From IMG/VR virus record IMGVR_UViG_3300020079_000007, positions 96,001 to 160,000 of that record: 64,000 bases of DNA; one strand, given 5' to 3'. The stretch's first letter is position 1. The number at the start of each line of letters is the position of its first letter. Source of the DNA: a virus. Lineage: Duplodnaviria; Caudoviricetes. This document shows positions 1,485-51,400 of this stretch, piece after piece. The notes below the pieces were generated by a model that saw only the letters and a list, made by a program, of their open reading frames with translations, was not told the DNA's origin and did no database searches. The translations under genes and the position numbers were made by a program.

Positions 1485-2795
1485 TTAAATTACTTTGTAA
1501 GTTGCAATGATGCTCAGAAGAACCTCTGGGTCAAGGCCACTGCTGTAAGAACTGAACATTTCAAGGAATGGCCACTTTTCAGCGCTAATCTCGATTGTCT
1601 CTTCTGCAGCTGTGTTAATCTGGAAGCCTGCAACGCGAGCAATATATTCAATCTTACGAAGATTGTCTCTTGCAGTCCAAGAATTGTTGTACTTTTCTGC
1701 AGACTCAACAACTTTCATAAATTCTTTGATTCTTTCCATTTCATCAGGTGTTGCTGCAAGGTTGAGACGGCTTGCATTTGCATCCCAATACTTTGTAATC
1801 TTTTCACGAACAGGGCTTAAAGAAAGAATACCGATACGTCCTTCAATGTTTGTAATCTTGTTCTTTGAAGCAAGATTTTCGTAATACTTCAGACCCTGCT
1901 TTTTAGCAAACTCAATGAAAGTGTTCAACTTCTTGTAAGCTTCACCTTTCTGAAGGCGCTTCCAATCACCGTAGTTGATTTTCAAAGCCTTTCTTTTAGG
2001 GAAGACAACGTTCAGGTAATCTTCAATACCGTGAAGATACTTTGAAGGAGTAGTCTTGCAAACATTCAAATCAGCAGAGTAGTAATCACTACGATTGCGG
2101 GCGATGAAGATGATTGCATCTTTAAGGTTTGCATCAGCCAAGATTTCGTTTGCACTGTAAACTTTATCAGCATCATATTTTCCAATTCCGCCGAAAAGCT
2201 TTTCATCATCAACGCGGTCTGCAAGTCGGGCAACAGCTTTCTTTTCTGTTTTACCGTTTACATCAACTTCAACATAATCGTCGAAGTTGAAAACTCTTGG
2301 GCTTGCATATCCAACTTTCTTTACAAGATCTTCGATATTAGGACCCATAATTGTGATTGGGTAATCATCTGTAAGTTTGTTTTTTGCAAGGATGTCGTCA
2401 AGAACCATTGCAGAACCGTTAGGGAACCAACGGAAGTCAGCAGAGTCCATAAACTTGTCATACTTTTTCTGAGAAATGTTTACAAAGATTATTGACTTTT
2501 CTTTGTTTTCAGAGAAGAAGTATCCGATCTTCTGTTCGATTGTGTTGAATTTTGCAATGTAAGAAGGTCCTGCATACTTGTGAACCTGACGATTGTTGTT
2601 GTTTCTGTAAGTTGATACTTCGATAAAAGGAAGACTGAAAATACCATCAATTTTCTTTTCAATCTTTGACTGCTTTTCAGCCTGAATTTTGACGATGTCA
2701 GAAATATCATCTTCAAGCAAGTCCTGATACTTTTCAACGATTTTTGTAAGCTTTCCGATACGCTTGCAAGTGTTGTAAGACTGTTTGATATTCAT
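1485..2795 (-). CDS. Hypothetical protein, possibly the C-terminal half of a split rIIA
   Basis: 436-aa ORF with strong SD (AAGGAG) and its own early-type promoter, directly downstream of a short rIIA-like gene. Confidence 0.5.
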   Translation of the reverse strand: MNIKQSYNTCKRIGKLTKIVEKYQDLLEDDISDIVKIQAEKQSKIEKKIDGIFSLPFIEVSTYRNNNNRQVHKYAGPSYIAKFNTIEQKIGYFFSENKEKSIIFVNISQKKYDKFMDSADFRWFPNGSAMVLDDILAKNKLTDDYPITIMGPNIEDLVKKVGYASPRVFNFDDYVEVDVNGKTEKKAVARLADRVDDEKLFGGIGKYDADKVYSANEILADANLKDAIIFIARNRSDYYSADLNVCKTTPSKYLHGIEDYLNVVFPKRKALKINYGDWKRLQKGEAYKKLNTFIEFAKKQGLKYYENLASKNKITNIEGRIGILSLSPVREKITKYWDANASRLNLAATPDEMERIKEFMKVVESAEKYNNSWTARDNLRKIEYIARVAGFQINTAAEETIEISAEKWPFLEMFSSYSSGLDPEVLLSIIATYKVI

Positions 2796-2829
2796 ATAAG
2801 TTACTCCTTTCGATTGATTTTACAAATAT

Positions 2830-2858
2830 AATATAAAGAAGTTGCCGGAAAAGTTCAG
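2830..2858 (-). promoter_or_regulatory. Early-type promoter CTGAAC-N17-TATATT, overlapping a hairpin (2843-2868)
   Basis: Matches the motif repeated at 3952, 17798, 27705 and 42558. Confidence 0.65.
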
Positions 2859-2876
2859 TTTTCCGGCATTTTTTCT

Positions 2877-3917
2877 TTATGCTGTTGCGAGTTCTTCGTA
2901 AGCTTTTCTTGAGTAGAAGTTTACGATTGATCTTTTCAAAGCATTTTTTGTTGCTTCTGTGTAATTCAACTTTTCACGAGAAGCCTGAAAGTTCAAAGAA
3001 CCGATTGGGAAGTGAAGAACCAAAGTATGGTTGTGTGAGTCTTCTTTGAAGAAAGAAATTGCATCGTAATCTCCATCGAAAACCTGTGCAATATCAACAT
3101 CGTAAGGAACTCCACCCATATCAACGATTGTTCCTGAGAAACGGCCCGCAATCTTTGAGATAAACTTGTTTGCTGCCATCATATCAGCGTCAGTTGCATC
3201 GTAAGCGTCTGAATACTTGTCTGTCCTTACAATAAGGCGGTTTTCTCCCTTCAAAAGCTTGCGGATGTTGTTGAACTGCTCAAGGCTTTCAACTTCAGCC
3301 TGCTGCAGGAACTTGTCAGCTCCGTTGAGAAGTTCAGGCATCTGCTGTGCAAAAGCAAGTACCGGAATTGCTTCGTAAATGTAGTTGAAATGCTTGTCAG
3401 AAGGAACTGCGAAGTAAACCTTTGTTCCTGTTTCGTTTGAAGGCTCTTCACCGATAAACTTAAAACGTGGCTTTCTGTCAGGACCGCGGTAACAAAGAGC
3501 TGTTCTCTTTACGCCGTCTTTTGAACTTTCAACTGTCCAAGTATCAGCAACAGAGAACGGAGATTTTGCTCCAACTCCAAGGCCACCGATCTGGTCGTTT
3601 GTATCACGCTTGTCAGAACCACCGTAAGTGAAAACATTACGCATTTTTGCGGCATCCATTCCTATACCGTAATCACGAACCCAGAAAGTTGGGTCAATTT
3701 CGTTAGGAAAGTGTATCTGCACAGGATTTTCAACTCCTGCGGCGATATTTGCGTCAATTGCGTTTGAAAGAACTTCACGAATTACTGACTGAATTGGGTT
3801 TGAATAGAGCTTTGTCGAAAGAATGTCGAACAAGCCTGCATCGTTTGAATTGAGTGAAAATACTTCACCGTCGTCGATATTTGACTGAATGTCGGCTGCA
3901 TTTGAATTGATTACCAT
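2877..3917 (-). CDS. rIIA: rIIA-like protein (GHKL/HSP90-like ATPase domain)
   Basis: ILSTKLYSNPIQSVIREVLSNAIDAN, RDYGIGM, GGLGVGAKSPF, GTKVYF and SREKL motifs. Confidence 0.8.
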   Translation of the reverse strand: MVINSNAADIQSNIDDGEVFSLNSNDAGLFDILSTKLYSNPIQSVIREVLSNAIDANIAAGVENPVQIHFPNEIDPTFWVRDYGIGMDAAKMRNVFTYGGSDKRDTNDQIGGLGVGAKSPFSVADTWTVESSKDGVKRTALCYRGPDRKPRFKFIGEEPSNETGTKVYFAVPSDKHFNYIYEAIPVLAFAQQMPELLNGADKFLQQAEVESLEQFNNIRKLLKGENRLIVRTDKYSDAYDATDADMMAANKFISKIAGRFSGTIVDMGGVPYDVDIAQVFDGDYDAISFFKEDSHNHTLVLHFPIGSLNFQASREKLNYTEATKNALKRSIVNFYSRKAYEELATA

Positions 3918-18855: not shown

Positions 18856-21800
18856 ATGGGCGCTATAGGTGTTGTAGGCGGACAAGGCGGCTTATCTCCA
18901 GAAGATTCAAATAGTTTAGAAAATCTCTCAACAAACAGCAAAGGCTTTCTTGATGGTATCAATGAGTCAAAATCAATTGCTCAGAAACAACTTAATTATG
19001 TTTCTGACATTGCAGTTGATGTAGGTACTAAAGGTTGGTTTGCTGAAACATTAGGAAAACTCGTAGACAACTTTGAAGAAAATACTGTAAAAGAAGATGA
19101 AGGCAGAACACTCTCTGAAGAGATTAAAGACATATTATCTGATATGAAAATCTTTGAAGAGACAACAAACATAGATAATAAAGAAAAGAAAAAGAAAAGA
19201 GGTAAAGTTTCAGATAGGACAAAGCTTGATGATTTGAAATCTTTGCCATACGAATTCGCAACACTCGGTGCTGTATTGGTAAATGCTCTTACAAATAAAG
19301 ATGAAAAGAAAGACAAGAAAGGCGGCATCTCAGGATTCTTCAAAGGTCTTCTTGAAGGTGTCGGTGGAATTGCTGCTCTCGGTGTTGCTTTGTTTGCATT
19401 TGCAGGTGCAACTTTAATATTCAATTTCGTTGACTGGGGTAAAGCAGTTATTGGTATGCTTGCCTTCACAGTATTTACAATCGGTATGGTTGCATTAGCT
19501 AAAAACTTAAGTGAAGAACAAAAAGATTTAACGAAGTTCGTAGAGTCATCTCTTATAATGTCAGCTGCATTAGGAGCATTTGCTATTTCACTTTACATTG
19601 CAAGTTTCTTAATGTCAGGTAAGCCTGTTTATATTGGTGATATTGAATTACCTGCATTCAGCATCGGTGGTGCGATTGCCGCATTGGTTTCTTTTGGTTT
19701 ATTTGAACTTGGAATGGTTGGCCTTGCAAAACTTATGGGCGGCAGTGAAGCTGACTTTATGAAGTTTGCAGCAGGCTCTATGATAATGACAGCTGCATTG
19801 GTTACATTCAGCATAGGTTTAGTTATTGCATCAAACATTTTCGCAAATGGTATCAACTTAGGTGGATTTGCAAAATATATAAATGGCGGAGCAGACAACA
19901 CTGTATTAAAGGTTGACCCAATAGGAGCTATAGCTGCAATCGGAACATTTATTGCATTTGAGGCAGGTCTTGGTCTTGTTGCAAGAATTATGGGAAGCTC
20001 AACTGGCGACTTTAGAAAGTTTGCAGCAGGTTCAATCATTATGTCTGGTGCATTAGTTGCATTTGCCATTTCATTAGTTGTTGTTTCACATCTCTTTACT
20101 AATGGTGTAAACATCGACAGTTTGAACATACATCTTGACCCAGTTGACCCTAAGATGGCTCTTCTTGGCGTAGGTACATTTATCGCATTTATGATTGCAA
20201 TGGCTGTCTTAGGGGCGGCATCTCAGTCAATACTTCAGTATATGGCAATTCTTGGTGCAGTATCAATGCTTATGTCTGTTTCATTGATACTATTTGCAGG
20301 TGCTATGGCAGTTGTTGCTTCTGTTGTATCAGGTGAATCACTTGAAGTAGCAGGCATTAAGTTCCAGCCTCCTCAGGGCGTTGTAAAGAATGCATTTATT
20401 GGTTTGGCAGCTATGGCAGGATTTATGGTTGCATTTGCAGGCTTAGGAGCATTGTTCTTAGTTCCGTTTGCTGGAGCTGCTTTGGCTGCAGGTATTGCAA
20501 TCGCTTCTGGTATTTTAATTTCTATTGCAGCTGCAACTGTTTTAATGTCAAAAGCAATGATGTTGGCAGGCTTGGCAATTACTGGTGGTACTGCTGAAAT
20601 TGCTGGTGAAAAATATAATCTTGCTCCTTATAATGAAGCAAATGTTGATAAGTTCTTTAGTGCAATGGAGCACTTCATTGACAGATTTAAAGATATGGGT
20701 GACGGACTTAGCAAAAAGTCGGTAAAAGCAATCAAAATGGTTAATGATGCTGTTATGCCTATTATCAAGTCAATGGACAAAATGGTTGATGTTGTTATTA
20801 AAGCGGGTGAAAATTACGATAACATTATAAAGATTGTAAATGGTGACTCAAACGCTCTTGACCACTTAATGGACCCAGTTATGTATGTAATCTTGGGCCA
20901 TAAGCTTGATGGTGAAGGCGGTTTAATGTATGTTGCAAACAATATGAGCAAGTACAGTGCAAAGGTTCTTAAACTTGTTGGTGAAGCACTTGTGCCTATC
21001 ACTGATGCTATGCTCAATATGATTGATGTTGTTATCAAAGCTGCTGACAATAAGCAAAAGATTGAAGATATAATGTCATCTCAGGGCGGAATGGATATGC
21101 TTGACCATTTGATGGACCCTGTTCTTTGGATGATTCTTGGTCATAATATGGACGGCTTAGGCGGCTTGATGTATGTTGCAACTTATATGAGTTCTTGGAG
21201 TGCAAAAACATTAAAGCTCGTAATTGAGTCTATGGTTCCTCTTACTGAGGCAATGAGCAATATGATTGACATTGTCTTAAAGGCTGCAACACTTTCAGCA
21301 GAAGGTATGACAACAGAGGAACTTGTTGCTCTTGCAATGGACAACCTTAATTTGATTATGGTAGGAAACGGCACAATTGCAGGTTTCCTTCCAATGTTTG
21401 TTGCTACTGCAAGTAAATTAGACGATACATCAAAAGATGCGATAGAAGCAATCAACTCAATGCCACCTATGGTACAAGCTCTTGGTGATATAATTGGTGT
21501 TGTTGCAAAAGCAGGTGAACTTGACCCAGCAAAAATTGATGCAGGTATTTATGGTTTGACTGCAGCATCAAACTTCTTGAAAACATTCATTAAAACAATC
21601 GCTGATATTATCCCAGGCGGAGTCGGTGGCTTCTTTACAAGTATGTTTGAAGGCGACCCTCTTGAAAAAGTTAAAGATGCTCACAAGTATTTACAGCCGG
21701 GCGGTATCTTCTATAACATCTTTGAAGATTTGGCAAATATCGCAAAAAACTTTGATGGAAAAGGTTTTGAAAATCTTGGTAAAGTATCAATCGTAGGTTC

Positions 21801-25694: not shown

Positions 25695-25991
25695 ATGAAA
25701 GAAGAGTTTCGTATGACACCTGAGTGGTGGGCAATGCGAAAAGAATTGATTGCTGAGCAAAAGAAAGACCCAGTTACAAATGCTAAACTTTCTCCTAAGG
25801 CAAACTGCCATCATCTTGACCAAAGAGATGAGAACTACACAAGCACCGATAAAAGACGGTACATTATGTTGCAACCTCTCACCCACAAGATGACTCATTT
25901 CCTTTACCGCTTGTATAAAAAACAAGGAGAGCATCTTTTCGACACTCTCCGTAACATTTTCAAATTGATGGATAAATATTCAAATGATTAG
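25695..25991 (+). CDS. HNH endonuclease-like protein (degenerate Zn finger)
   Basis: EWWAMRKELI..DPVT...CHHLD...LQPLTHKMTH. Confidence 0.5.
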   Translation: MKEEFRMTPEWWAMRKELIAEQKKDPVTNAKLSPKANCHHLDQRDENYTSTDKRRYIMLQPLTHKMTHFLYRLYKKQGEHLFDTLRNIFKLMDKYSND

Positions 25992-27682
25992 TTTGGGTAC
26001 TTTTTCCAGAATGAAGCAGGTGTATTTGCTGCCCAAGCAAACTTTTTCTGCTGTGCTGCATTGTAAATTATTCCGATGTCAACTCCCAAGTCTTTACAGA
26101 AGCTGTAAGCAACTTTTGGGCTTGAGTAATTCAACTTTGCAGTACCAAGAGCAATGTTCTTTGTTGCCTTTTTAAGGTCCTTGTTTGCTTCAAGCTTCTG
26201 AACTCTCAAATCAGCTTTTTCAACCTGTGCTTTGATTTTGTTTTCTCTTTCAGCAATTACATCCAAGAGACCCTTAAGTTCATCACCTGAGAACTTCTTT
26301 TTGCAAGCTGCCTTCTGCTTCCTGAGTTTAGCAAGTTGAACTTTTGCTTTTGCAGCGCGGGCTTTTTCTGCTTCTTTTGCCTTCTTAATTGTTTCGTCAG
26401 TCTTATCCATCTGAGTTGCGAAGTTTTTTGCAACATTTTTCTGATGGTTAAGTTTTGTTGATACAACCAAGCAAGCATTGTCGTAAATTGAACGGATTTT
26501 CCATTCAGGCATTCCCTTTTTGACATCTGCTTTCTGAAGTTCCTCAGCAAGAAGCTTTGTTCCGTAAGTTGTTCGGAAAAGCTTTCCTGTTACATAAGGC
26601 AGGCAATCTGAAAGGAACTTGTTTACTGTTCCTGCAGAAGCTTTATCGAAAACTCTGTCAGAAGGTTTCTTATTTGCAATAAAAGTCTTCAGAGCTTTTT
26701 CAACATTTGCTGGGATTTCAACTGTGTTGTGGTATCTTACAGTATCTTTTCCGAGGAAGTCAAGTTCCAAAGTACCGTTTCCAACCTTGATATTCTTTAC
26801 AAGAAGCTGGGAAGCACCAACTGTTCCATTTTCAAACTTATCAAGCTTTTCAGTTCCGATACGAATACTTGTGCGGAGAATAAGCCAAGAAACTACTGCT
26901 TCCTGCTTGTTTGCGTTTACTCCGTCTTCGATATACTTTTCCATTATTGGCCAATCTTTTGCAAGCTGCTGTGCTTTTTCGTACTTGTGTTTGTCAGCGT
27001 CCTGTTTTACAGTTGATGTTGCGCCAAAACCATACTTCTTTTTGAGAGTTGCATAACCTTCACCGATGTGAACATCAAAATAAGTTGCAACATAAGCTTC
27101 GCGATTTTCAACAACTGCCTTCCACTTATGTCCTGCAGGAGGCTGTGGGATTTTTGATTTATCACCGATGTAATTGATTGTAACATCTTCAGGCTGAATT
27201 GCCCACTTCCACATTCCGTTCATTGGGCATTTGCCGCGGCCGACATACACTCCTTCAGGTTCGAGAACATATCCACCGATCTGCTGCTCAACTCCGTCAA
27301 GGAAGATTACGCCGTATTCTTTTTTGATTTTTTCGTTTTCAAGTTTCTTTGCTTCACGGGCTTCTTTTGTGTTTGCAAGCTTCTTTGCTTCTTTAATCAA
27401 TTCATTTTCTGCCCGCATTGCTTCGATTGTTTTTTCGTATCCTTCTGGGAAAGTTTGAGGCATTCCTACAGGAACATTTTTAAGGAATGTTTTTGCAAAG
27501 TTTTTCTGAAAGTCGGTACGATTTCGATAGTCATCGCCAAGAACTGCCCAGTGCCAAAGCATATCCTCAGAAAGATAATCAAGCTTTATTCCATTGACAA
27601 AAAACTTGCCTTTATATTCATAAGGTTTTGGGAAAAGTGGTCCCTTGTGTTCGATTGTCTTAAATTTTGCTTTTTTAGCCAT
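25988..27682 (-). CDS. DNA topoisomerase IB, long eukaryote-type
   Basis: EHKGPLFPKPYE, EPEGVYVGRG, PEDVTIN, PPAGHKWK, RIGTEK, DFLGKD, KLFRT, NHQK and IALGTAKLNY; all five catalytic residues present. Confidence 0.95.
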   Translation of the reverse strand: MAKKAKFKTIEHKGPLFPKPYEYKGKFFVNGIKLDYLSEDMLWHWAVLGDDYRNRTDFQKNFAKTFLKNVPVGMPQTFPEGYEKTIEAMRAENELIKEAKKLANTKEAREAKKLENEKIKKEYGVIFLDGVEQQIGGYVLEPEGVYVGRGKCPMNGMWKWAIQPEDVTINYIGDKSKIPQPPAGHKWKAVVENREAYVATYFDVHIGEGYATLKKKYGFGATSTVKQDADKHKYEKAQQLAKDWPIMEKYIEDGVNANKQEAVVSWLILRTSIRIGTEKLDKFENGTVGASQLLVKNIKVGNGTLELDFLGKDTVRYHNTVEIPANVEKALKTFIANKKPSDRVFDKASAGTVNKFLSDCLPYVTGKLFRTTYGTKLLAEELQKADVKKGMPEWKIRSIYDNACLVVSTKLNHQKNVAKNFATQMDKTDETIKKAKEAEKARAAKAKVQLAKLRKQKAACKKKFSGDELKGLLDVIAERENKIKAQVEKADLRVQKLEANKDLKKATKNIALGTAKLNYSSPKVAYSFCKDLGVDIGIIYNAAQQKKFAWAANTPASFWKKYPN

Positions 27683-27704
27683 ATTTTCGACTCCTTACAA
27701 TAAT

Positions 27705-27733
27705 AATATAAAGAATTATTGGTAAAAGTTTAA
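27705..27733 (-). promoter_or_regulatory. Early-type promoter driving topoisomerase IB
   Basis: TTAAAC-N17-TATATT followed by SD AAGGAG. Confidence 0.7.
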
Positions 27734-27754
27734 AATAAATTAACTAAAATTTAC

Positions 27755-27807: not shown

Positions 27808-27915
27808 TAGAATATTAAGAATTGAAGGTAAATTTATTATAAAGTTAATATATCTTTGTAAAACTAATTATTTTGAAATACACTTAAACGGTAAATTTAC
27901 CTGTGGAGAAAAATA

Positions 27916-30838: not shown

Positions 30839-30870
30839 TGTCTTCCTTAACTAATTATTTAAGGAAGACA
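30839..30870 (+). promoter_or_regulatory. SD-sequestering hairpin with the late promoter motif in its loop
   Basis: Perfect 12-bp TGTCTTCCTTAA/TTAAGGAAGACA stem; ACTAATT at 30850-30856. Confidence 0.75.
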
Positions 30871-33269: not shown

Positions 33270-36200
33270 ATGATGAAAAAAGGTCTTACATTTATAAGTG
33301 AAAGAACAGGTCAGCTTAGATATTCTGACATTGCGACAGAAGAACAGTGGATTCAGCAAACAAGTACATACATTCCAATTCAAGCTATCAAAAGAGGACA
33401 GCCTGTTTCAATTGCAACAAAAGAAGACTTGGAAATTGTTGCAAACGGTGATGAGGTTTTGTATGAAGCACTCCTTAATTCATCAGACTCTTATGTAGTT
33501 TTAACAAACCCAACAAGACATACAAACACAATCGGTCTTGCATTGGAATATACTGACGGACATCACGAGATTGTTGATGGAGAACTTAAAACTGCCCCAA
33601 AGATTCACATTATCAACAATGGTAAATACATCGAAGATGCTAACTATTACGCACAGGCTTTTACAGAAGAAGATTCTTATACAGTTGCGGGTGATGCTGA
33701 CTCAGAATATGAGGAATATTGGCCACCATTTTTTGATGATTATGAAAACTCAATCGGTAAGAAAATTTATGTAAAAGGCTCAGCTGATGGTGAACTTACT
33801 CTTGTAAAAGAAGAAGCATATCTTGCTCACAACAATGTTATCGTTCTTGGTTTTGTAACAGACGCTAAACTTAAAAATAAAGAAAATGAAAAAGATGTTG
33901 GAGCAATCGAAGTTCAAGTACAAGGTGATGACCGCGGCCTTATTGATGCAACAATCTTTGAAGCTGTTGTAGGTGAAGACTTCGTTATTGGCGATACAAA
34001 AGTTCAAGCAAACGGCGAAACAAACTGTAAGACAAAAGTATTTGCTTTAGGTTCAGAAGATGATGAAATATTTGAGTTCTCATTCAATATCAATCAGCTT
34101 GTTAATACTCCAATGCCTAAAGGTTTTATCGCTCTTCAAAGAATTGACGGTAAAACATATATCATTCAGACAAATGGCGAAATAAGTGAAAGTCTTCTCA
34201 ATGAAGGTGAAGCTTACGATTATAATGACCGTGCTTTCTATCAAGTTGCAAAGTATTATGCTGCAAATTATAACGAGTCAATTGAAAAGGTAGACCTTGC
34301 TGTTACTGAAGCATCAGCAACAAACTTGATTTCAAAGTTGGAAGCTGAACTTAAAAATGCAATGGCTTACATCTCACAAGGTGAAAATGTTTCATTAAAA
34401 GATGGCCATACATCAAACATTACAGACCTTGACTTTGATGAGTCTGAACTTGGAACAAAGCACCGTCTTATTTGTAGAGCAAATGACATTGGTGGTTATT
34501 TTGATGTTTATGTTTCATCAAACTTAACAGGTATTTTATCTGACCTCAATATCAAGTCACACGGTTCATTCTTCAACAGAGGATACGCTGTTCTTGCAGA
34601 TATTCGTAATCCTAAGAGACAGAACATTATCGGTATTTACAACTCAGGACATACTGGACTTGTAAAGAAAGGTGAAAATGCAATCTTCTTAAAGCAGGGT
34701 CTTTTCAGAGATTACTCAAATCCTTTTGAAGTAGGCGAAAGATATTATCTTGGTTCACACGGTAACATTTTCAAAGTTCCTCAAGAATACTACAACTCAA
34801 TCATCTCAATTGGTTATGCACAATATAAAGATGCTTTAATTGTTGATTGTTGCGATGTAAGACAATATAACAACGGTGACCTTCCTGTAGGTTATATGAA
34901 GCCTTCTATCAAAGGTGAAGCTGAATTCGGTTTCTTATTGATGAACGGTGAGCCTGTAGAATATGAAGGACACGAACTTCTTTATAAGAGACTCAAGAAC
35001 TGGTATGATGAAGCTGACTTGAAGCTTGGTTCATATTACTTTGGTGAAGTAGAGAAGACAGGATTTATTATTCCAAAAGTTCAATATCAAAAACATACAG
35101 GTGAAGAAGAGTCTTATACTCCTGCGCAGATTAAATGGCTTGCAGAAGGCGTTTATAAAGAAATGCCAAGAACGCCTTTTGTTCGTCGTTTCGTTGATAT
35201 TGATTATCCAAAGCAAGTTATTGATAATAACGGAGAAGAAGAGGAAATCATCTTAGCACATCAGGCAAGAATACCTGACATTGATATTACTCCTCTTATG
35301 ATTTATGGTCCTGAAGAAGACCGTTTGCAAATCCCAGATTTGGAAAATCTTGACATCAAGTTCTTCGCTGACTTGTCAGATGGCAACGTTCCTGAATGGG
35401 TACAAATTGACCCAGGCTTCCATTCATTTGATGCACTTACATACTTTGGTTATAAGTGGACTGTAACACAAACTAATGAGCCTTCTGACTCAAATCCTTA
35501 CGGAACTTGGGTATTGAGAGCAGCTTATAACGGAACACAGGGACCTAACGAAGTTGACAATGATGATACTGCTATGGGTATTTGTTATCAAGCTGACCCA
35601 TTCTCTCCACCTGTTTCACTTGCAGGTCGTCGTGCAAGAATCTTTGTTGTAAAACACGATTACTACTCAAGACAATTTGATGTTGAAGCTCTTTTCAAAG
35701 ACTATGTAAAAGAGTCTTTGGTTGATGCAACTGACCAACCTTGGATAAGCCACGCAATCTCCGGTAATGCTGTTCGTCAGGACCTTTACAGAAGAGTTTA
35801 CACAAAAGACTTGTTGCTTGGTTCAACTGAAAGAAGAGCTGATGTAAATGGTTATATTCAGTCAATCAGATTAAACGGTGAAGCTCTTGAGAACGAAGAT
35901 GAGTTGGCTGCATATACACTCAACACAAATCTTCGTTTGAAGAATCCTGCAAATGCAAATGACCAAGCTCTTGATTATTACAATGGCTTATTAAAGTATT
36001 ACTATCAGAATGAAACAGAAGATAGCGCAATATCTCACAAGGCAAGTTTACAAACAAAAATCTTAAATGAGCCTTACGCATTGCTCCCTTCTTATATGTT
36101 CAAAGCTCATAAAGAGTTGTTGGTTAAAAATGCAACAGCAAAAGACTTTACAGATCATCCTCACGGAATTGTAAATGATGGTTATGAAGGCAACCTCAAT

Positions 36201-39200
36201 GCAAAAACTTTACAATCTGCAAACTTGGGTTACCCACAGCATATCTTGTCAAACAATGTAACAGATGATGTAAACGAAGTTTATGTTGAAAAAGAGAACG
36301 CTGCAATTGCAATCACAATTCCTTATACACAAAAGACTACTACAGGTGATTACAGAACTCGTCTCGGTAACTTGACAGAATACAGAGACGCAGACGGTAA
36401 CCTTATAAGACATACAATCAAAACTTACGGCAATACTTCTGAACTCGTAGAAGATATTGATATTCATAACGGCTTTGACTATGTTCAGAGAATACGCGGT
36501 AATGTTGGCGGCAACAGCAAGTCAATGAATATTAAGTATGGATTCTCTGACGACAAACACGATATAACTTTTGAAGATGATGACGGAAATCCATTAAGCT
36601 TGTATGGTACCTTCGTTCAGACATCTTCAATTAAAAAGAAGTATGTTCTTTCAAGATTTGAAGGTAAGAACTCTCCTGCTATCGGAAGTGAGTTCTCAGA
36701 TAAATATATCGGCAACGGCAAAGAGCAAGTATTAAATGAAGCTTTGCAGGCAATTTATGAAATGCCTCTTGCAACATTCAAATACAACAGAGAATACTTA
36801 TCTGAAGATCCTTGGTACAAGAGATACTTCGGTATTATCGTTGAAAGAATTGCCGCAACAAAAGATAACTTTGCAAGTGATGCAGAGTTGACAAATAAGA
36901 CTGCATTAGACGAAGTTGAATATACTTATACTGATGAAGAGAAAGCTTCTATTGCAGAATACCTCAAACTTGTAACTGACAACCCAGAACAGGGTATGCG
37001 TGAGTCAACTGTTATTGGTATTCTTTTGAAAGCTGCAAAAGAAACACAGGAAAGATTACTCAACCTTGAAGTATCAACATACGGTAAGGATTCTCCTACA
37101 CTCCCAGGTGAAGATGAAAAGAATCCAAACTTTACAGCAAACGACCAAAAGTCAACAATTGCAGGTCTTAACCGTTTGGTTAAAGCATTGTGTCGTGAAG
37201 TATTCCAGAATGCTGACCCAACAAATATCAATGAACTTGGCGGTTGGTCTGAAGATGGTGAAAACTACTCACGCCTTGACTTAATTGACAAAGAAGTAAA
37301 CGGTGAGGCTGCAAAGGATGATAATCAAGAAAGAATCTTCCTTGCAAAGAATATTGGTAAAACATATCCTGATGCTGCAGATATTACAGAAGAAGCCGTT
37401 CCTAATGAAGCACTTGTTCCTGATGCTGAAAATGATAACGACTTCGGAAGTGAAGATGCAGTTAAGTACCCAACAGATACAACATATACTCCAAACCCAG
37501 AAGAGATTGATGACTTCGATGGCATTAACGATGCAATCAACAGAATCGTAGCTAAACTCAATCAGCTCACAATCAACATCAACGGTGAGGACGACATCAA
37601 AAAGAATCCAAAGAAACTTGATTACATTCGTGGAACTTTGGTAACACTCCTTCGTGATGTTTACTCTGATGGTTCAGTTGATGAGGTTGAAAATGGTATA
37701 TATGTTAAGAAAGGTCTTTCAAGAATTGATAAGATTCTTCAGGACCTTTACAACTTCGATTTAACTTACGGTGCAACAAGAGCAAAAGTAAATACATATA
37801 ACGGTAAAGATTTGTATGGTGTAGAAAATAATGAGTCAGCAAGTACAGAAATGATTGACTCATTCAGTTCTCGTTCACCTGAAAAGATTGAAGATATTTT
37901 TGGCAAGGCATCAATTCTTGATGTTATAATTGAACTTCTCTCAGGTAATGAAAACAACTTGGTTAAGACAAAGTTGACACCTTGGAAAGACCTTGCAAAC
38001 AATGAAAACAATTGGAAAGTAAATGCAGACAACACAGTAGCAACAACATACGACAATACTGCAGAACTTACAAATAACAAAAACTCTCGTAATCATTATA
38101 CAGTTCTTCAGAGACTTGACGACATTGAAAAAGCATTGACTTTGATGTTCTCAAGATTTGCAAACAAAACTGACTTCACAAAAGATACTTCTCGTGTTGG
38201 TGAAGGCGCTTATGATGGTGTAACATCAGTTGATGATTATATGAAGTTCTTGAGACGCAACTCAGGACTTTGCTTCCACAGCGCAGGCTTGTATGCAGAT
38301 AAAGTTGAAAACGATGAAAGAACTACTGCAGCTAAAGCAATTACCGCTGAAGATTGGGTAAGACCTGTTCACGATACAGTAGACAACTTTGATGTTTATG
38401 ATACAATTTATGATGCAATCAAACGTATCAAGAACAGTGAAATGAACTTGGGTTACAACAATGCTAAACTCGGTACTGATTATGATACATATAAGAATGG
38501 TAACACAAGAATAACAAAGGATGCTTATGAAACTCTTGCTCCAAACGGCGAAGTTCCAACTCCTGATTATACTGTAACATCTGATATGAGAGCAGTTCTT
38601 AAATTGCTATACGGTTCTGACTTGGCAAATGCAGATGCTTCAAACAACAAGACAGGTTCAGTACACTTCAATGTTACTGATGAAGCAAGCGATAACTTCA
38701 AGAACTCTCCTAATGGTGTTTCAGTAATTGATGCATTATATAAGATGTTGTATAATGTGCCTCAAGCTTACAACTACGATGCAGGCGCAGGTACATCATC
38801 AAGATTATCTGGAACAGTTGATGCAATATTTGAAAATGCAAAAGGCTTTGACCCAGCAGTTCCAAAAGCTCATATTGCTGTAGGTGAAAGTGAATCTCCT
38901 GTAGCAGACGGACATCGTAAAGGCTTCATCTTACAAAATAAAGATGGTAATGCTTACAGAAAGAATCGTATTGATGTTCTTGAAGATTGGATAAAAGCTA
39001 TTTACAGATATGTTGGCTTCGGCAGCACAGAAGATCCTTACTACTTCATCGGCGACCTTCACCTTACTTTCGAAGATAGAGATGATGGCGATAAAGATGT
39101 ATTCGTAAATGGAAAACAATACTGCACAACAGCTTACAACAAGAAGTACATCACAGAGTCAGGTAATTACACACTTGCAGAGATTGCTTTACAATCTTAC

Positions 39201-40295
39201 TACAACACACTTAAACTTGAAAAAGTATTAGGTGATGATCCTAACAATTACCCAGTTGATTGGAACTATGTAATTCCTGAAGAAAGTGAAGACTTCAAGA
39301 TTAAGTCAAAAGTTGAAACAGACCCAGATAAGGTTAAAGCAACAGGCGTACACGCTGCTCTTAATAAGCTCTACTCTTATATCAATAAACTTGATGTTGC
39401 GGCAATTGATATTGACGAAAGACTTCAGCAATATGCAAGAGACAATGACAAAGAAGTTAAAGATATTAAAGATGAAATCGGAGCTATCAAAGATGAGATT
39501 GGCACAAAGCCTACAGAATCACCTATTGAAGCAGAAACTCTTTGGGGTGCAATTGAAGAGACAAATGTTGCAAACCGTTTAGTTGACGATGTAAATGCAA
39601 ACCTTCAAGTAGCTGATGAGGAAACAATTGTAAAGAATGATGCAACAGAACAATCTGACAGCAATGTTGTAACACCTGCTGCTATGAAAGCTTATGTTGC
39701 AGACATCGTAGAACAGTTGAGAAAAGAATACGATGAAAAGTGTCAGCAAGTAAAAGAACAGGCAATCATCCTTGCATATCTTAAATGCAGTAACATTACA
39801 GTAATCTCAGATAAGACAATTCAAATTGACCACAATGGAGAAAATGAGGACTTCATTTGGGAAGAAGGACATACTCCTAATATAGGTGCTCTTGAAGTTG
39901 TAGGTCCTGTATCAAAGAGATTTGGTAAAGAAATGCGCAAGATCCGCATCATCGATAATGAAGACAACATTACATATGAAGCTTGGTTCGACTATGTTGA
40001 AAAAGAATATAGCAGCAGCTCATCTTACAAACAAAACTTCCTTTTGGGAACAATTGATGTAGGTAACCGCTTAACTCCGGTTATTACAGAGAATAACATC
40101 CAAGGAAATAACTTGAGTCCTGTTATAGAGGAAACTGTTGAGGTTGGAAATAATTTGTCAAGTGTTATCACAGAAGATGTTGAGAACGCTAACAACTTAA
40201 ACCCAGTTATTACTGAAAACAGTCTCACAGTAAATAACTTGACTGTAGGTGATGATGGTGTGACAAATAATTCAACAGACAACTCAGGAGAATAA
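33270..40295 (+). CDS. Giant tail fibre-like protein with tail-collar domain and internal S74 chaperone-like domain
   Basis: Collar LPVGYM..GFLLMNG..LLYKRL (~34880); S74-like TSSIKKK..ALQAIYEMPLATFKYN..FGIIVE..LLKAAKETQERLLNLE (~36620-37070). Confidence 0.65.
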   Translation: MMKKGLTFISERTGQLRYSDIATEEQWIQQTSTYIPIQAIKRGQPVSIATKEDLEIVANGDEVLYEALLNSSDSYVVLTNPTRHTNTIGLALEYTDGHHEIVDGELKTAPKIHIINNGKYIEDANYYAQAFTEEDSYTVAGDADSEYEEYWPPFFDDYENSIGKKIYVKGSADGELTLVKEEAYLAHNNVIVLGFVTDAKLKNKENEKDVGAIEVQVQGDDRGLIDATIFEAVVGEDFVIGDTKVQANGETNCKTKVFALGSEDDEIFEFSFNINQLVNTPMPKGFIALQRIDGKTYIIQTNGEISESLLNEGEAYDYNDRAFYQVAKYYAANYNESIEKVDLAVTEASATNLISKLEAELKNAMAYISQGENVSLKDGHTSNITDLDFDESELGTKHRLICRANDIGGYFDVYVSSNLTGILSDLNIKSHGSFFNRGYAVLADIRNPKRQNIIGIYNSGHTGLVKKGENAIFLKQGLFRDYSNPFEVGERYYLGSHGNIFKVPQEYYNSIISIGYAQYKDALIVDCCDVRQYNNGDLPVGYMKPSIKGEAEFGFLLMNGEPVEYEGHELLYKRLKNWYDEADLKLGSYYFGEVEKTGFIIPKVQYQKHTGEEESYTPAQIKWLAEGVYKEMPRTPFVRRFVDIDYPKQVIDNNGEEEEIILAHQARIPDIDITPLMIYGPEEDRLQIPDLENLDIKFFADLSDGNVPEWVQIDPGFHSFDALTYFGYKWTVTQTNEPSDSNPYGTWVLRAAYNGTQGPNEVDNDDTAMGICYQADPFSPPVSLAGRRARIFVVKHDYYSRQFDVEALFKDYVKESLVDATDQPWISHAISGNAVRQDLYRRVYTKDLLLGSTERRADVNGYIQSIRLNGEALENEDELAAYTLNTNLRLKNPANANDQALDYYNGLLKYYYQNETEDSAISHKASLQTKILNEPYALLPSYMFKAHKELLVKNATAKDFTDHPHGIVNDGYEGNLNAKTLQSANLGYPQHILSNNVTDDVNEVYVEKENAAIAITIPYTQKTTTGDYRTRLGNLTEYRDADGNLIRHTIKTYGNTSELVEDIDIHNGFDYVQRIRGNVGGNSKSMNIKYGFSDDKHDITFEDDDGNPLSLYGTFVQTSSIKKKYVLSRFEGKNSPAIGSEFSDKYIGNGKEQVLNEALQAIYEMPLATFKYNREYLSEDPWYKRYFGIIVERIAATKDNFASDAELTNKTALDEVEYTYTDEEKASIAEYLKLVTDNPEQGMRESTVIGILLKAAKETQERLLNLEVSTYGKDSPTLPGEDEKNPNFTANDQKSTIAGLNRLVKALCREVFQNADPTNINELGGWSEDGENYSRLDLIDKEVNGEAAKDDNQERIFLAKNIGKTYPDAADITEEAVPNEALVPDAENDNDFGSEDAVKYPTDTTYTPNPEEIDDFDGINDAINRIVAKLNQLTININGEDDIKKNPKKLDYIRGTLVTLLRDVYSDGSVDEVENGIYVKKGLSRIDKILQDLYNFDLTYGATRAKVNTYNGKDLYGVENNESASTEMIDSFSSRSPEKIEDIFGKASILDVIIELLSGNENNLVKTKLTPWKDLANNENNWKVNADNTVATTYDNTAELTNNKNSRNHYTVLQRLDDIEKALTLMFSRFANKTDFTKDTSRVGEGAYDGVTSVDDYMKFLRRNSGLCFHSAGLYADKVENDERTTAAKAITAEDWVRPVHDTVDNFDVYDTIYDAIKRIKNSEMNLGYNNAKLGTDYDTYKNGNTRITKDAYETLAPNGEVPTPDYTVTSDMRAVLKLLYGSDLANADASNNKTGSVHFNVTDEASDNFKNSPNGVSVIDALYKMLYNVPQAYNYDAGAGTSSRLSGTVDAIFENAKGFDPAVPKAHIAVGESESPVADGHRKGFILQNKDGNAYRKNRIDVLEDWIKAIYRYVGFGSTEDPYYFIGDLHLTFEDRDDGDKDVFVNGKQYCTTAYNKKYITESGNYTLAEIALQSYYNTLKLEKVLGDDPNNYPVDWNYVIPEESEDFKIKSKVETDPDKVKATGVHAALNKLYSYINKLDVAAIDIDERLQQYARDNDKEVKDIKDEIGAIKDEIGTKPTESPIEAETLWGAIEETNVANRLVDDVNANLQVADEETIVKNDATEQSDSNVVTPAAMKAYVADIVEQLRKEYDEKCQQVKEQAIILAYLKCSNITVISDKTIQIDHNGENEDFIWEEGHTPNIGALEVVGPVSKRFGKEMRKIRIIDNEDNITYEAWFDYVEKEYSSSSSYKQNFLLGTIDVGNRLTPVITENNIQGNNLSPVIEETVEVGNNLSSVITEDVENANNLNPVITENSLTVNNLTVGDDGVTNNSTDNSGE
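40062..40240 (+). repeat. Coding tandem repeat, 14 aa (42 bp), ~4.3 copies
   Basis: GNRLTPVITENNIQ GNNLSPVIEETVEV GNNLSSVITEDVEN ANNLNPVITENSLT VNNL. Confidence 0.8.
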
Positions 40296-48476: not shown

Positions 48477-51400
48477 ATGTACACAAGCAACTCAGAATTT
48501 GATTTAGAAACAAGAGTTCAAATCACTAACGAAGTACCTGCTGTAAGAACTTTCCAGCAGATGCATCATTCATTACAAAATGAAACTTGGAAATGGCTTA
48601 TCGGAACAGAAGATGTAGATTACGACTTACCTGTAGGTGGTAAATACATTGAAGGCGTTGATGCTGACGGTAACCCAGAAACAAGAGAGCTTATCGCACC
48701 ACCTGTTAAAATTGTAAATGGAAAACAGGCAGCTTCTTACGGCCCAAGTAAAAGTGAAAAATGGAATCCTGATACTGAATCTTATGAAGAGTATGTTCCA
48801 AAATTTCATAGAACAGAAATCAAAGGTACACTTACCGTTGAGCAGGACTTGTTCTTACACGAAATTTATCGTTACCTCAATTGCATTTACCCAGATCATC
48901 CTGATTGGTTGAACTTGCTTACAAGAAACGAAGTTCTTGATGCTTTCAACAATGCTGCTGCAATGGTTGATTATAAACCTAATAACGAGTTCTTCAAACT
49001 TGTTGCAGACTCTATCGGCGACGTTGATGGCTCAGAAGAGTTTAAGCTCAACCTTCGTAACTTGACATCAAATGCTGCAAGAAGAAAGTTCTTTGGTTCA
49101 ACATTGGGCTATCGTATGACAGGACACGATGCATACGAAGACATTATGGTATTCCCAATTGGAAAGAACTTGACAATTGCTCCAATGATGGGTACTGACT
49201 CAGGCGAAACAAATTCAAACGGTGAAGTACTTTACAAGCCAAGTGATATTCCTGTAAAGAATTACATCATTGATACTTTTGATGAGCGCTATCAAACATT
49301 GTTCCGTCGTATTGACTTCAACGGTGATAGCCGTGATACATCATTCGTATCATCAAATTCTGTTATACTTCCTGCTTATACACTTCCTGGGTATGAGGAC
49401 TTTGTATTTGAGTTTGTTTCTTCAAAAGATGGCTACTCAACTTTACAAGACCACAAAATATATAAAGAAAATGATTTCTCATTCTTCACAAATCATAATG
49501 AAGACATCGTAGGTTCGATTGCAAACTTAAAACAATATAATGTTATTGAGCCAAAAATTACAACAGTTGATGACAAGAACTATGTTGAGTATGTTTCTTC
49601 TGATGATAAAGTTTATGGATTCCAATTGTCTGTTTTATCAAAACCTTCATACTTGAAACTTTATAAGTATAAAACAATTGATGAACTTGAACAGTTCCAA
49701 AAAGACCATAATCTCGACACAACAAACATTAAAAACTGGGATATGGCTTTCGGGGCAGACGGAAAAGCAAACCGCACAAAAGCATTCTTCTCAGAATACT
49801 TAAGACCTTTATTCCACTACTGTGCTGGATTTGATGCTCTTAAAGGATATGAATCCCTCAGAGATACAGTTGACTACGCATACAACTCATTCGTAAAAAA
49901 TACAATCGTTCTTCCTCCTGAAGAAATGATTAAACTTTATGGTGAAACAGAATTTGATGAAGGCGTTACAGTAAACAAAGTATCACCTGAATTGATTGGC
50001 ACATCACTTGAGAAAGGTGACTTCATATCTTTCGATGATGCTTCAATGAAGAGTACAACAACTTATGAAGTTGTAGGCGCTTCTTGGGGTGTTCTTGAAG
50101 CAACATTCCACCACGATAAAAACATTTCAGATTATCTCGCAATCAAAAATTATTCACCTTTCGATGAATTAAACGATACAGTTGTATCAGATGATAATTC
50201 TGCAGTCGTTGTTCAGAACAGAGATGGCGATTATATCGTATTACACGGTTCATTGAGATGTTTCTGGAAAACAATGTCTCAAGGGCCTTTCACAGCTTCA
50301 TATCTTGACTCAATCAAATTTGTAGTTAAAGCTATCCCAGAAACAAAGTCAGAACAATTGTTCCGTACTATTTATGGTGATGACAGCTTTAAGTTGATTG
50401 ATGAAATCAATGAAGAGATCTTGCAGTATGATAGAGATATGGCAAGAGCTCGTGCTTTAATAAAACAAGTTGAAAATACTCTTACTGATACACCTCTTGA
50501 AACATATGAAGAGTTGTCTGTAAAAGAAACACTCACTGCAGAAGAACAAGAAGCCCTTGATGCTGCAATTGCAAAACTTGAAGAGTTTGCATATTCTTAT
50601 TGGTCTGATTACAAAGCTGCTGAAGAAAAAGTAAAAGATGCAACTGAAGACCTTGTAAAAGCAAATACAGAACTTGCTCGTCTTAGAAAGAATAAAGAGC
50701 TTCTCTTAAAAGATGGCGTTATATCTTTTGGCTATGATAGCAAAGTTGTATTCTTGGGACAGGTTGGTGACCAAGGCATTTATGGTAAATATCAATTTTT
50801 ATTAGACTTTGGACTTGTTGAGAGCTTCAATCTTGGTAATGTTTCAGTATTGCCTATTGACCCAATGAACGGTGCAATCCCAATGGAAAGAAACTATGTA
50901 AATGGTGACTTTGAAAAAACTTACTATCTTGCACAAGTTGACCAAAGCAAGTTGATTAAAGACACATCACAGATTGGACAACTTTACAGCAACATTCTTG
51001 ATGATGATAGAGCTCTTGCATTTAAGTCAACAATAAAGTTTGAAGTATATAATGAAAAGACATACACTGTAACTGCACAGGTATTTGTTGATAAGAAAGC
51101 AAATCAGGTAACCCACGAAATGCAGTTCTTGACTGACATGCAAAGGAAAAAGTTTGAGTCTATCAGTGTAGGTTCAAAAGTTCGTGGCCCAGGTATTGGT
51201 AACGCTTATGTTGTATCTTTAGGAAACAATTCATTAACATTGAACACATCAATTCCTAAAGGCGGCTACTTGACATATCATTTTGAATGCCCAGTAACAA
51301 CAACACCTAACGAGATTAAAGATGACCCATTCAATTACAAAAGAGTAATGAATGACTTGGGTATTTATGATAAAGTTTCTTTCTTTGACCACGGTGTATA

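Follow-up and report, generated by a model that had tools for sequence, protein, structure and literature searches.

The locus described here raises the question of whether a bacteriophage can own a full-length topoisomerase IB (TopIB) of the long kind and, if it does, how old such a gene is in phages and what it is for. The stretch analyzed, called the window in what follows, comprises 64,000 nucleotides and corresponds to bases 96001-160000 of a 188,745-bp IMG/VR record (IMGVR_UViG_3300020079_000007) that CheckV rates as about 65% complete. On its minus strand, at 25988-27682, the window carries an open reading frame (ORF) with an ATG start that stays open over 564 amino acids. A preliminary description, made from the nucleotide sequence, had read this ORF as a protein collinear with human Top1 under a phage early promoter. 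We report here that it encodes a full-length long-type (eukaryote/archaea-type) TopIB, that the gene is native to the phage, which comes from animal guts, and that long TopIB is no one-off but widespread in uncultivated jumbo phages. We consider it likely that the protein is a catalytically competent, phage-owned enzyme serving above all as a swivel for the replication and transcription of a genome of about 306 kb.

A full-length long-type TopIB

Three Pfam families, all matched far over their curated cut-offs, account for most of the protein: PF02919 (Topoisom_I_N) at residues 6-201 (E 8e-38; 130 bits, the cut-off being 25), PF01028 (Topoisom_I) at residues 223-440 (E 4e-48) and PF14370 (Topo_C_assoc) at residues 493-558 (E 2e-18). 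In a phmmer comparison with all PDB chains, the top matches were human Top1 structures (1NH3, 1A31, 1K4S and others; E ~3e-69), followed by Caldiarchaeum CsTOP1 (6Z01, E 5e-56) and then by the Leishmania large subunit. Residues 5-553 of the query align to residues 41-583 of Topo70 in one collinear stretch, which bears out the proposed collinearity, and the quoted motifs EHKGPLF, EPEG..GRG, PPAGHKWK and IALGTAKLNY are all found in the protein. Because this alignment begins at query residue 5, the long charged N-terminal extension of eukaryotic nuclear TOP1 is absent; Topo70 residue 41 presumably corresponds to residue 215 or so of the human protein, provided that residue 175 is the first of the 591-residue chain. 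Named eukaryotic matches are longer, and the phage protein aligns to their C-terminal part. The domains and key codons lie as follows.

25988-27682, minus strand: TopIB coding sequence including the stop codon, 564 amino acids (Pfam, phmmer)
27080-27667, minus strand: cap or DNA-binding fragment, Topoisom_I_N, residues 6-201 (Pfam)
27236-27238, minus strand: codon of R149 (human R364), inside the cap (direct codon check)
26363-27016, minus strand: catalytic core, Topoisom_I, residues 223-440 (Pfam)
26861-26863, minus strand: codon of R274 (alignment and direct codon check)
26747-26749, minus strand: codon of K312 (alignment and direct codon check)
26573-26575, minus strand: codon of R370 (alignment and direct codon check)
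26444-26446, minus strand: codon of H413 (alignment and direct codon check)
26165-26422, minus strand: two-helix coiled-coil linker, residues 421-506, with helices at 421-463 and 466-506 (AlphaFold2 model)
26009-26206, minus strand: C-terminal domain, Topo_C_assoc, residues 493-558 (Pfam)
26126-26128, minus strand: codon of the catalytic Tyr519 (alignment and direct codon check)

The catalytic pentad reported earlier as intact is indeed so. By alignment, R274, K312, R370, H413 and Y519 correspond to human R488, K532, R590, H632 and Y723, and all five codons were verified directly. In an alignment of 69 sequences covering phage, archaeal, giant-virus and eukaryotic members, the first four residues are invariant and Y519 nearly so (at least 90%); the tyrosine sits in the motif LGT(A/S)KLNY, aligned to human Y723. 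The enzyme is probably active. Equivalents of the camptothecin-contact residues R364, D533 and N722 are also present, as R149, D313 and N518, and Y146 takes the place of human F361. Camptothecin sensitivity is not predictable from these conserved contacts, since archaeal CsTOP1 is resistant to the drug even though F361, R364, D533 and N722 are conserved in it (PMC4824112).

An AlphaFold2 model built on the 69-sequence alignment has a mean predicted local distance difference test score (pLDDT) of 96.0 and a predicted template-modeling (TM) score of 0.88. In the model, the Lys/Ala-rich coiled coil that had been recognized spans residues 421-506 and takes the form of two antiparallel helices of about 40 residues (421-463 and 466-506) with pLDDT above 90. 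The best Foldseek matches are human Top1-DNA complexes, at TM scores of 0.82-0.84 over about 570-575 columns (E 1e-37). With 1RRJ and 1SC7 the TM score is 0.84 (E 1e-37), and the clamp fold of the model superposes on solved TOP1.

A native gene of a tailed jumbo phage

ORFs of the record encode rIIA, a UvsX-type recombinase, DnaB, pieces of a family A polymerase (PolA), NrdD, ThyX, dCMP deaminase, NAD-dependent ligase, a CCA-adding enzyme, IS200/IS605 transposases, homing endonucleases and flagellin, and the record also has a transfer-messenger RNA (tmRNA) gene. The product of the ORF at genome positions 70059-71810 is related to the T4 Gp23-type capsid protein but has diverged from it (phmmer 6e-12); it was found with Gp23 of a related TopIB-bearing phage as the query and missed by the Pfam Gp23 model. 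No capsid protein of nucleocytoplasmic large DNA viruses (NCLDV) was found in the record. Given rIIA, UvsX, the gp23-like capsid protein, the tmRNA and the lack of an NCLDV capsid protein, the record is that of a tailed jumbo phage.

A second copy of the gene, 97% identical, is carried by contig JAZNWZ010000130.1 (C130; 306,108 bp), which was binned in a metagenome-assembled genome (MAG) of 'Candidatus Fimenecus sp.' The last 141 bases of this contig repeat its first 141, the mark of a circular assembly at k=141. From this overlap it follows that the contig is a complete, circularly assembled phage genome of about 306 kb within a bacterial bin, a size that agrees with the CheckV completeness estimate for the window's record. 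As a clue to the host, the 'Ca. Fimenecus' bin is weak evidence.

On a 128-kb ENA scaffold that encodes a 58% identical TopIB (protein P0020), the gene is flanked by the same neighbors as in the window; those of the scaffold encode 1134, 311, 108, 439 and 244 amino acids on one side and 561, 252, 119, 758 and 2241 amino acids on the other. In both, the TopIB gene lies on the opposite strand. Its GC content is 0.397, compared with 0.372 +/- 0.028 for the genes of the genome, and its GC content at third codon positions (GC3) is 0.342; neither value departs from those of the genome's genes by more than about one standard deviation. The codon differences from the two near-identical TopIB copies L005 and L085 amount to 83 synonymous against 13 non-synonymous and 100 synonymous against 16 non-synonymous, respectively, and this excess of synonymous changes indicates purifying selection on the sequence. 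The nine neighboring genes match no Pfam or PHROG family at 1e-3, and the neighborhood therefore gives no clue to function.

The signals that would govern expression are the following.

27691-27696, minus strand: Shine-Dalgarno sequence AAGGAG, 8 nt ahead of the ATG
27695-27735, minus strand: phage promoter motif of the non-late class (repeated motif; 45-nt promoter region)
25916-25950, minus strand: terminator-like hairpin (25926-25950; 10-bp stem with five G-C pairs) and T-run

The promoter consists of AAACTT (27726-27731), a 15-nt spacer and TATATTAT (27703-27710), followed by tATTGTAA. The window contains three exact copies of AAACTT-N15-TATATTAT, where 0.00 would be expected. Across the 189-kb record, 16 genes are preceded by the TATATTAT core, about 14 of them with the full bipartite motif and all on the minus strand. 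Those genes under the bipartite motif in this record that can be identified encode the two rIIA halves, the CCA-adding enzyme, a piece of the NAD-ligase and a PD-(D/E)XK exonuclease; none is structural. The motif also precedes the TopIB orthologues L002, L005 and L085, and the L006 orthologue has a diverged form, GAACTT...TATATTAG. Another motif, ACTAATTA, is found at a distance of 11-57 nt ahead of the gp23-like capsid gene, of genes for 3911, 792 and 589 amino acids and of others, including plus-strand structural genes (for example in the region of window positions 27863-27870, at 30850 and 48450, and at genome position 70023), and looks like a late promoter class. The phage promoter and Shine-Dalgarno sequence claimed for the gene are thus both there. 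To judge from the promoter, TopIB belongs to the non-late program of the phage; the word 'early' in the preliminary description goes further and would follow by analogy with T4 rIIA from a promoter class common to rIIA and DNA-metabolism genes. TopIB is likely a one-gene transcription unit, as the terminator-like hairpin follows 38 nt past its stop codon.

These results bear on whether the locus is an assembly chimera or contaminating eukaryotic DNA, in favor of which no evidence was found. Independent IMG/VR, ENA, Logan and NCBI MAG assemblies show the same gene context; the gene has a phage promoter and Shine-Dalgarno sequence, and its composition matches the genome. With conserved synteny at 58% identity and a 97% copy on the 306-kb circular contig, the probability of such an artifact is next to negligible, and the earlier view of the gene as integrated holds.

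Several further observations concern the surroundings of the gene. A small plus-strand ORF of no family at window positions 25695-25991 (about 98 amino acids from an internal ATG) runs toward TopIB, ends in a 4-nt overlap with the TopIB stop codon and contains the TopIB terminator-like hairpin. There is no counterpart of this ORF in L002, which has an unrelated 122-amino acid gene after TopIB. Two small ORFs downstream of TopIB (132 amino acids, plus strand, and 91 amino acids, minus strand) were considered as homologues of that 122-amino acid gene and showed no homology to it; neither matched a Pfam family. Many start codons have a third motif, GTTAATAT(A), 14-26 nt ahead of them. The plus strand also carries two giant ORFs, one of 2341 amino acids (window 33270-40295) and one of 3911 amino acids (window 48477-60212), the former matched in position by a 2241-amino acid gene in L002. 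The rIIA gene at window 1485-3917 on the minus strand is split into two consecutive ORFs of 346 and 436 amino acids, with two TAA stops inside the family match and a copy of AAACTT-N15-TATATTAT ahead of each. The genome carries three TnpB and two IS200 TnpA copies, and in L002 an IS605-type TnpB gene (19563-20948) adjoins the conserved structural block.

Distribution and origin of the phage enzymes

A search of 5.8 billion proteins returned about 30 clusters at 47-97% identity to the window's TopIB, all without a protein name or called 'hypothetical', on contigs of up to 128 kb. Below these clusters identity falls to about 35%, and then come eukaryotic TOP1 and TOP1MT at 30-34%. An exhaustive search of representatives gave 1959 relatives at E <=0.001, among them dozens of proteins of 540-580 amino acids at 33-43% identity without an N-terminal extension. 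The three genomic contexts examined among these are all phage-like: one contig of 429 kb encodes RecA, SLT and a 2351-amino acid protein, another of 174 kb encodes a tail-tube protein, and the third, of 62 kb, is rich in ORFans. In IMG/VR, relatives are encoded at 160 loci, many of them in giant-virus MAGs (GVMAGs) at 28-33% identity. The long type had been called typical of eukaryotes and some archaea; this is correct, but it is also common in giant eukaryotic viruses. Another 14 IMG/VR loci, at 30-38% identity, lie on contigs of 52-388 kb, and no NCLDV capsid was found on these 14 phage-side contigs. Of the 16 phage-side records searched for rIIA, 12 have it; two of these are the window's own record (G000) and a near-copy of it (G001), and the remaining 10 are among the 14 other contigs. 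It was found on none of the four giant-virus contigs searched. Canonical Gp23 capsid proteins were found on two TopIB-bearing contigs, and the Pfam tail-sheath model matched only one of 20 contigs.

Among deposited phages, close relatives are lacking. Whole-protein tblastn against 50,697 deposited phage genomes gave no match at 1e-5, megablast of the 14-kb context gave none against deposited phage records, and the catalytic core matched only Burkholderia phage BCSR5 and Pseudomonas phages PaBG and Lu11 among the 50,697 genomes (E 6e-5 to 0.2). In BFVD, the full-length viral matches are giant-virus Top1 only. Searches for the cap domain in 400 other genomes from the phylum of the MAG with the 306-kb contig, and in 14 control genomes, gave no match. 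A scan of genome contigs with patterns from six sequences returned the 97% copy alone; these patterns were narrow and are uninformative on archaea.

In five IMG/VR jumbo contigs (L013, L014, L016, L020 and L031), TopIB directly adjoins rIIA, whose product there is GHKL-ATPase-like with a weak match to a topoisomerase II large subunit (phrog_543, E 5e-6). Some relatives encode a split TopIB, cut at the equivalent of about residue 302 into two separately translated ORFs. The split point falls at a beta-hairpin tip just ahead of the catalytic Lys in the model, and at least six N-half and at least four C-half clusters share it. In L006 (2998-5508; IMGVR_UViG_3300026549_000059) a gene for a 234-amino acid GIY-YIG homing endonuclease lies on the opposite strand between the halves, and in L099 (3284-5927) the halves are separated by an NT5C nucleotidase gene and a gene for 74 amino acids.

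Three unrooted trees (a 224-row FastTree, a 100-row quick IQ-TREE and a careful IQ-TREE under LG+G4) are concordant; supports are given from the careful tree as ultrafast bootstrap/SH-like approximate likelihood ratio test. Rows were taken from the matches after 75% redundancy reduction, with fragments below 470 amino acids excluded, and most metagenomic rows are labeled by their clade and the few contexts examined rather than singly. The window's TopIB belongs to a clade (100/98) whose 35 rows are phage or metagenomic sequences. Together, the 47 phage-labeled rows can form one side of a branch (89/77; 89% of bootstrap trees), across which lie an archaeal clan (100/100), labeled from one member that sits amid cellular archaeal-type genes, and a clan of eukaryotes and giant viruses (100/97). 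This last clan excludes the phage protein, which does not branch within eukaryotes. The phylogeny proposed in the preliminary description thus places the window's TopIB in a phage clan, outside archaea and outside eukaryotes with their giant viruses.

The best named matches of the protein are animal mitochondrial TOP1 at 32-34% identity, as might be expected had the gene been captured recently from a eukaryote (gut protist or animal), a giant virus or an archaeon, a chance passenger with no long history in phages. This reading is already contradicted by its nesting in the 35-row phage-only clade, by the eukaryote-NCLDV and archaeal clans that exclude it, by the roughly 30 clusters at 47-97% and many more at 31-43% on phage contigs of 50-430 kb, and by the lack of the eukaryotic N-terminal extension; we regard it as extremely unlikely. 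At the other extreme, the long TopIB of jumbo phages may form an ancient line that goes back as far as those of archaea and eukaryotes or further, possibly with the root of the family within phage diversity and with eukaryotic, giant-virus and archaeal TOP1 derived from a virus-borne enzyme. A viral origin has reportedly been proposed for eukaryotic Topo IIA, which would be a parallel. With PaBG and BCSR5 as outgroup the root does fall within the phage clade, but the outgroup branch is very long, the alignment covers the core only and long-branch attraction is possible, making this a lead rather than a result. We put forward such an ancient virus-borne origin tentatively, as an unlikely possibility.

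Published accounts confine the long form to eukaryotes and, within prokaryotes and the viruses that infect them, to Thaumarchaeota and related (BAT) archaea, with viruses and bacteria having the short one (PMC4824112, PMC2621148, PMC8748870). The topoisomerases named in jumbo-phage surveys are limited to type II enzymes and a 'phage-specific' topoisomerase I that has the core only (PMC7824862). Our literature searches, with most subscription journals outside coverage, turned up no bacteriophage with a long TopIB, and none is given in PMC2621148, PMC4824112, PMC8748870, PMC8185306, PMC7824862, PMC8097291, PMC13282480 or PMC11662467. This is a known kind of enzyme in an unexpected class of host, forming a large phage-borne branch for which no description was found. 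The jumbo-phage branch changes this distribution of long TopIB and adds a fourth major lineage to analyses of the origin of eukaryotic TOP1; it is relevant both to topoisomerase evolution and to DNA topology in jumbo phages.

Proposed role and comparison with known systems

By analogy with the rest of its family, the C-shaped clamp formed by the cap and the catalytic core would close around duplex DNA, and Tyr519 would attack one strand to form a 3'-phosphotyrosyl link, with R274, K312, R370 and H413 stabilizing the transition state. The free 5'-OH end would then swivel under the control of the coiled-coil linker before the nick is resealed, and both positive and negative supercoils would be relaxed without ATP or Mg2+. 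With its likely one-gene unit driven by the promoter class of rIIA and DNA metabolism, the enzyme may be present before or alongside replication, and decatenation would be left to host enzymes.

TopIB is the only recognizable topoisomerase of these phages, which fits a swivel role in a very large genome. PF00521, PF00204 and PF01131 (GyrA/ParC, GyrB and type IA) had no match in the window's record (G000), in the 306-kb contig or in two complete TopIB-bearing relatives, G003 (388 kb, 98% complete) and G010 (329 kb, with terminal repeats), and all type IA and type II topoisomerase matches of the MAG fall on contigs other than the 306-kb one.

Some points weigh against this interpretation. With the window's record about 65% complete, the status of TopIB as sole topoisomerase leans on the near-identical 306-kb contig and on Pfam models, which a highly diverged type II enzyme might escape. 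The phage branch is known from sequence and predicted structure, and the timing of expression is drawn from the T4 rIIA analogy only; activity, timing and a role on phage DNA are accordingly put here as what the enzyme would do. Finally, TopIB is set between structural and giant-protein operons of the opposite strand, and relatives have it by rIIA or RecA instead, so that its location gives no consistent functional clue.

The location has a bearing on whether TopIB might be packaged in the virion, as in poxviruses, and injected with the DNA to support a first round of transcription. The gene is embedded amid structural and giant-protein operons, a position kept in the 58% identical relative, and vaccinia TopIB is encapsidated according to ref. 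52 as cited in PMC4824112. However, its strand is opposite to that of the structural operons, its promoter is of the rIIA type and not the ACTAATTA of capsid and structural genes, and in other lineages it lies by rIIA or RecA. Packaging is highly unlikely on this evidence.

Alternatively, an active TopIB might have the bacterial chromosome as its main substrate, with early relaxation erasing the negative supercoiling kept by gyrase and aiding host shut-down. Bacterial promoters and replication initiation rely on gyrase-maintained negative supercoiling, and enzymes of the TopIB family relax negative supercoils without cofactors. Such a takeover would accord with the promoter class common to rIIA and other non-structural genes, with the gene content of the putative host MAG, which has gyrase and topoisomerase IA but whose only TopIB lies on the phage contig, and with the lack of the cap domain in the 400 other genomes of its phylum. 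Against it, no sequence feature targets TopIB to host DNA, and as the sole recognizable phage topoisomerase it would be needed on phage DNA anyway. The two roles are not mutually exclusive, and a mainly host-directed one appears distinctly unlikely. If the swivel role on phage DNA is correct, some very large phages would handle DNA topology by a cofactor-free swivelase rather than by a type II enzyme. As small, extension-free and naturally two-piece-tolerant enzymes, the phage proteins are also possible models for studies of TOP1 mechanism and inhibitors.

Compared with known systems, the short TopIB enzymes (variola 2H7G; Deinococcus 2F4Q and 3M4A) share the chemistry and the fold of the catalytic domain, but they are about 310 amino acids long, lack a linker and have a small N-terminal domain of another kind, and they cover only about 240 columns of the model at TM scores to the query of 0.25-0.32. 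The window's protein does not group with them: it has a cap, a linker and a C-terminal domain, and its TM score to short enzymes is about 0.3. The short poxvirus/bacterial class is ruled out by the length of 564 amino acids, by the linker and by the absence of a match to PF09266, the small viral-type N-terminal domain, in the Pfam scan.

Jumbo phages PaBG, Lu11, phiRSL1, Motura and BCSR5 have a 'phage-specific topoisomerase I' (Iyer et al. 2021, PMC7824862), likewise a jumbo-phage enzyme with a TopIB catalytic core of the tyrosine-recombinase type (PF01028). The two such proteins scanned, from PaBG and BCSR5, match PF01028 alone, with no Topoisom_I_N or Topo_C_assoc. In PaBG the catalytic His and Tyr regions are about 20 residues apart, which leaves no linker, and identity to the window's TopIB is 27% over 211 residues. 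TM scores to PaBG and Motura are 0.34-0.41. The cap and C-terminal domains rule out this class, which has the core only and an unrelated N-terminal half.

The long TopIB of NCLDV (GVMAG contigs, Dasosvirus, a metagenomic Marseillevirus) is also virus-encoded and gives full-length structural matches at TM scores of about 0.8, but groups with eukaryotes (100/97) and not with phages; an NCLDV capsid was found on one of the six non-GVMAG IMG/VR contigs with NCLDV-type TopIB that were searched. Archaeal long TopIB (CsTOP1 of Caldiarchaeum subterraneum, 6Z01; Thaumarchaeota) resembles the phage enzyme in its similar length and in lacking the eukaryotic extension, with E-values for CsTOP1 of 5e-56 by sequence and 5e-34 by fold. 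The archaeal enzymes, in contrast, form their own clan (100/100) and are encoded on cellular chromosomes, with the phage enzymes across the 89/77 branch. Finally, human and other eukaryotic nuclear and mitochondrial topoisomerases I (Topo70 core; 1A31, 1A36, 1K4T, 1RRJ) have the same three domains in the same order, the catalytic R-K-R-H-Y, the coiled-coil linker and the closed clamp, at TM scores of 0.82-0.84 and 31% identity to human Top1. Unlike human Top1, the phage enzyme begins at the core, belongs to a separate clan of the tree, has Tyr in place of F361 and is borne by a bacteriophage.

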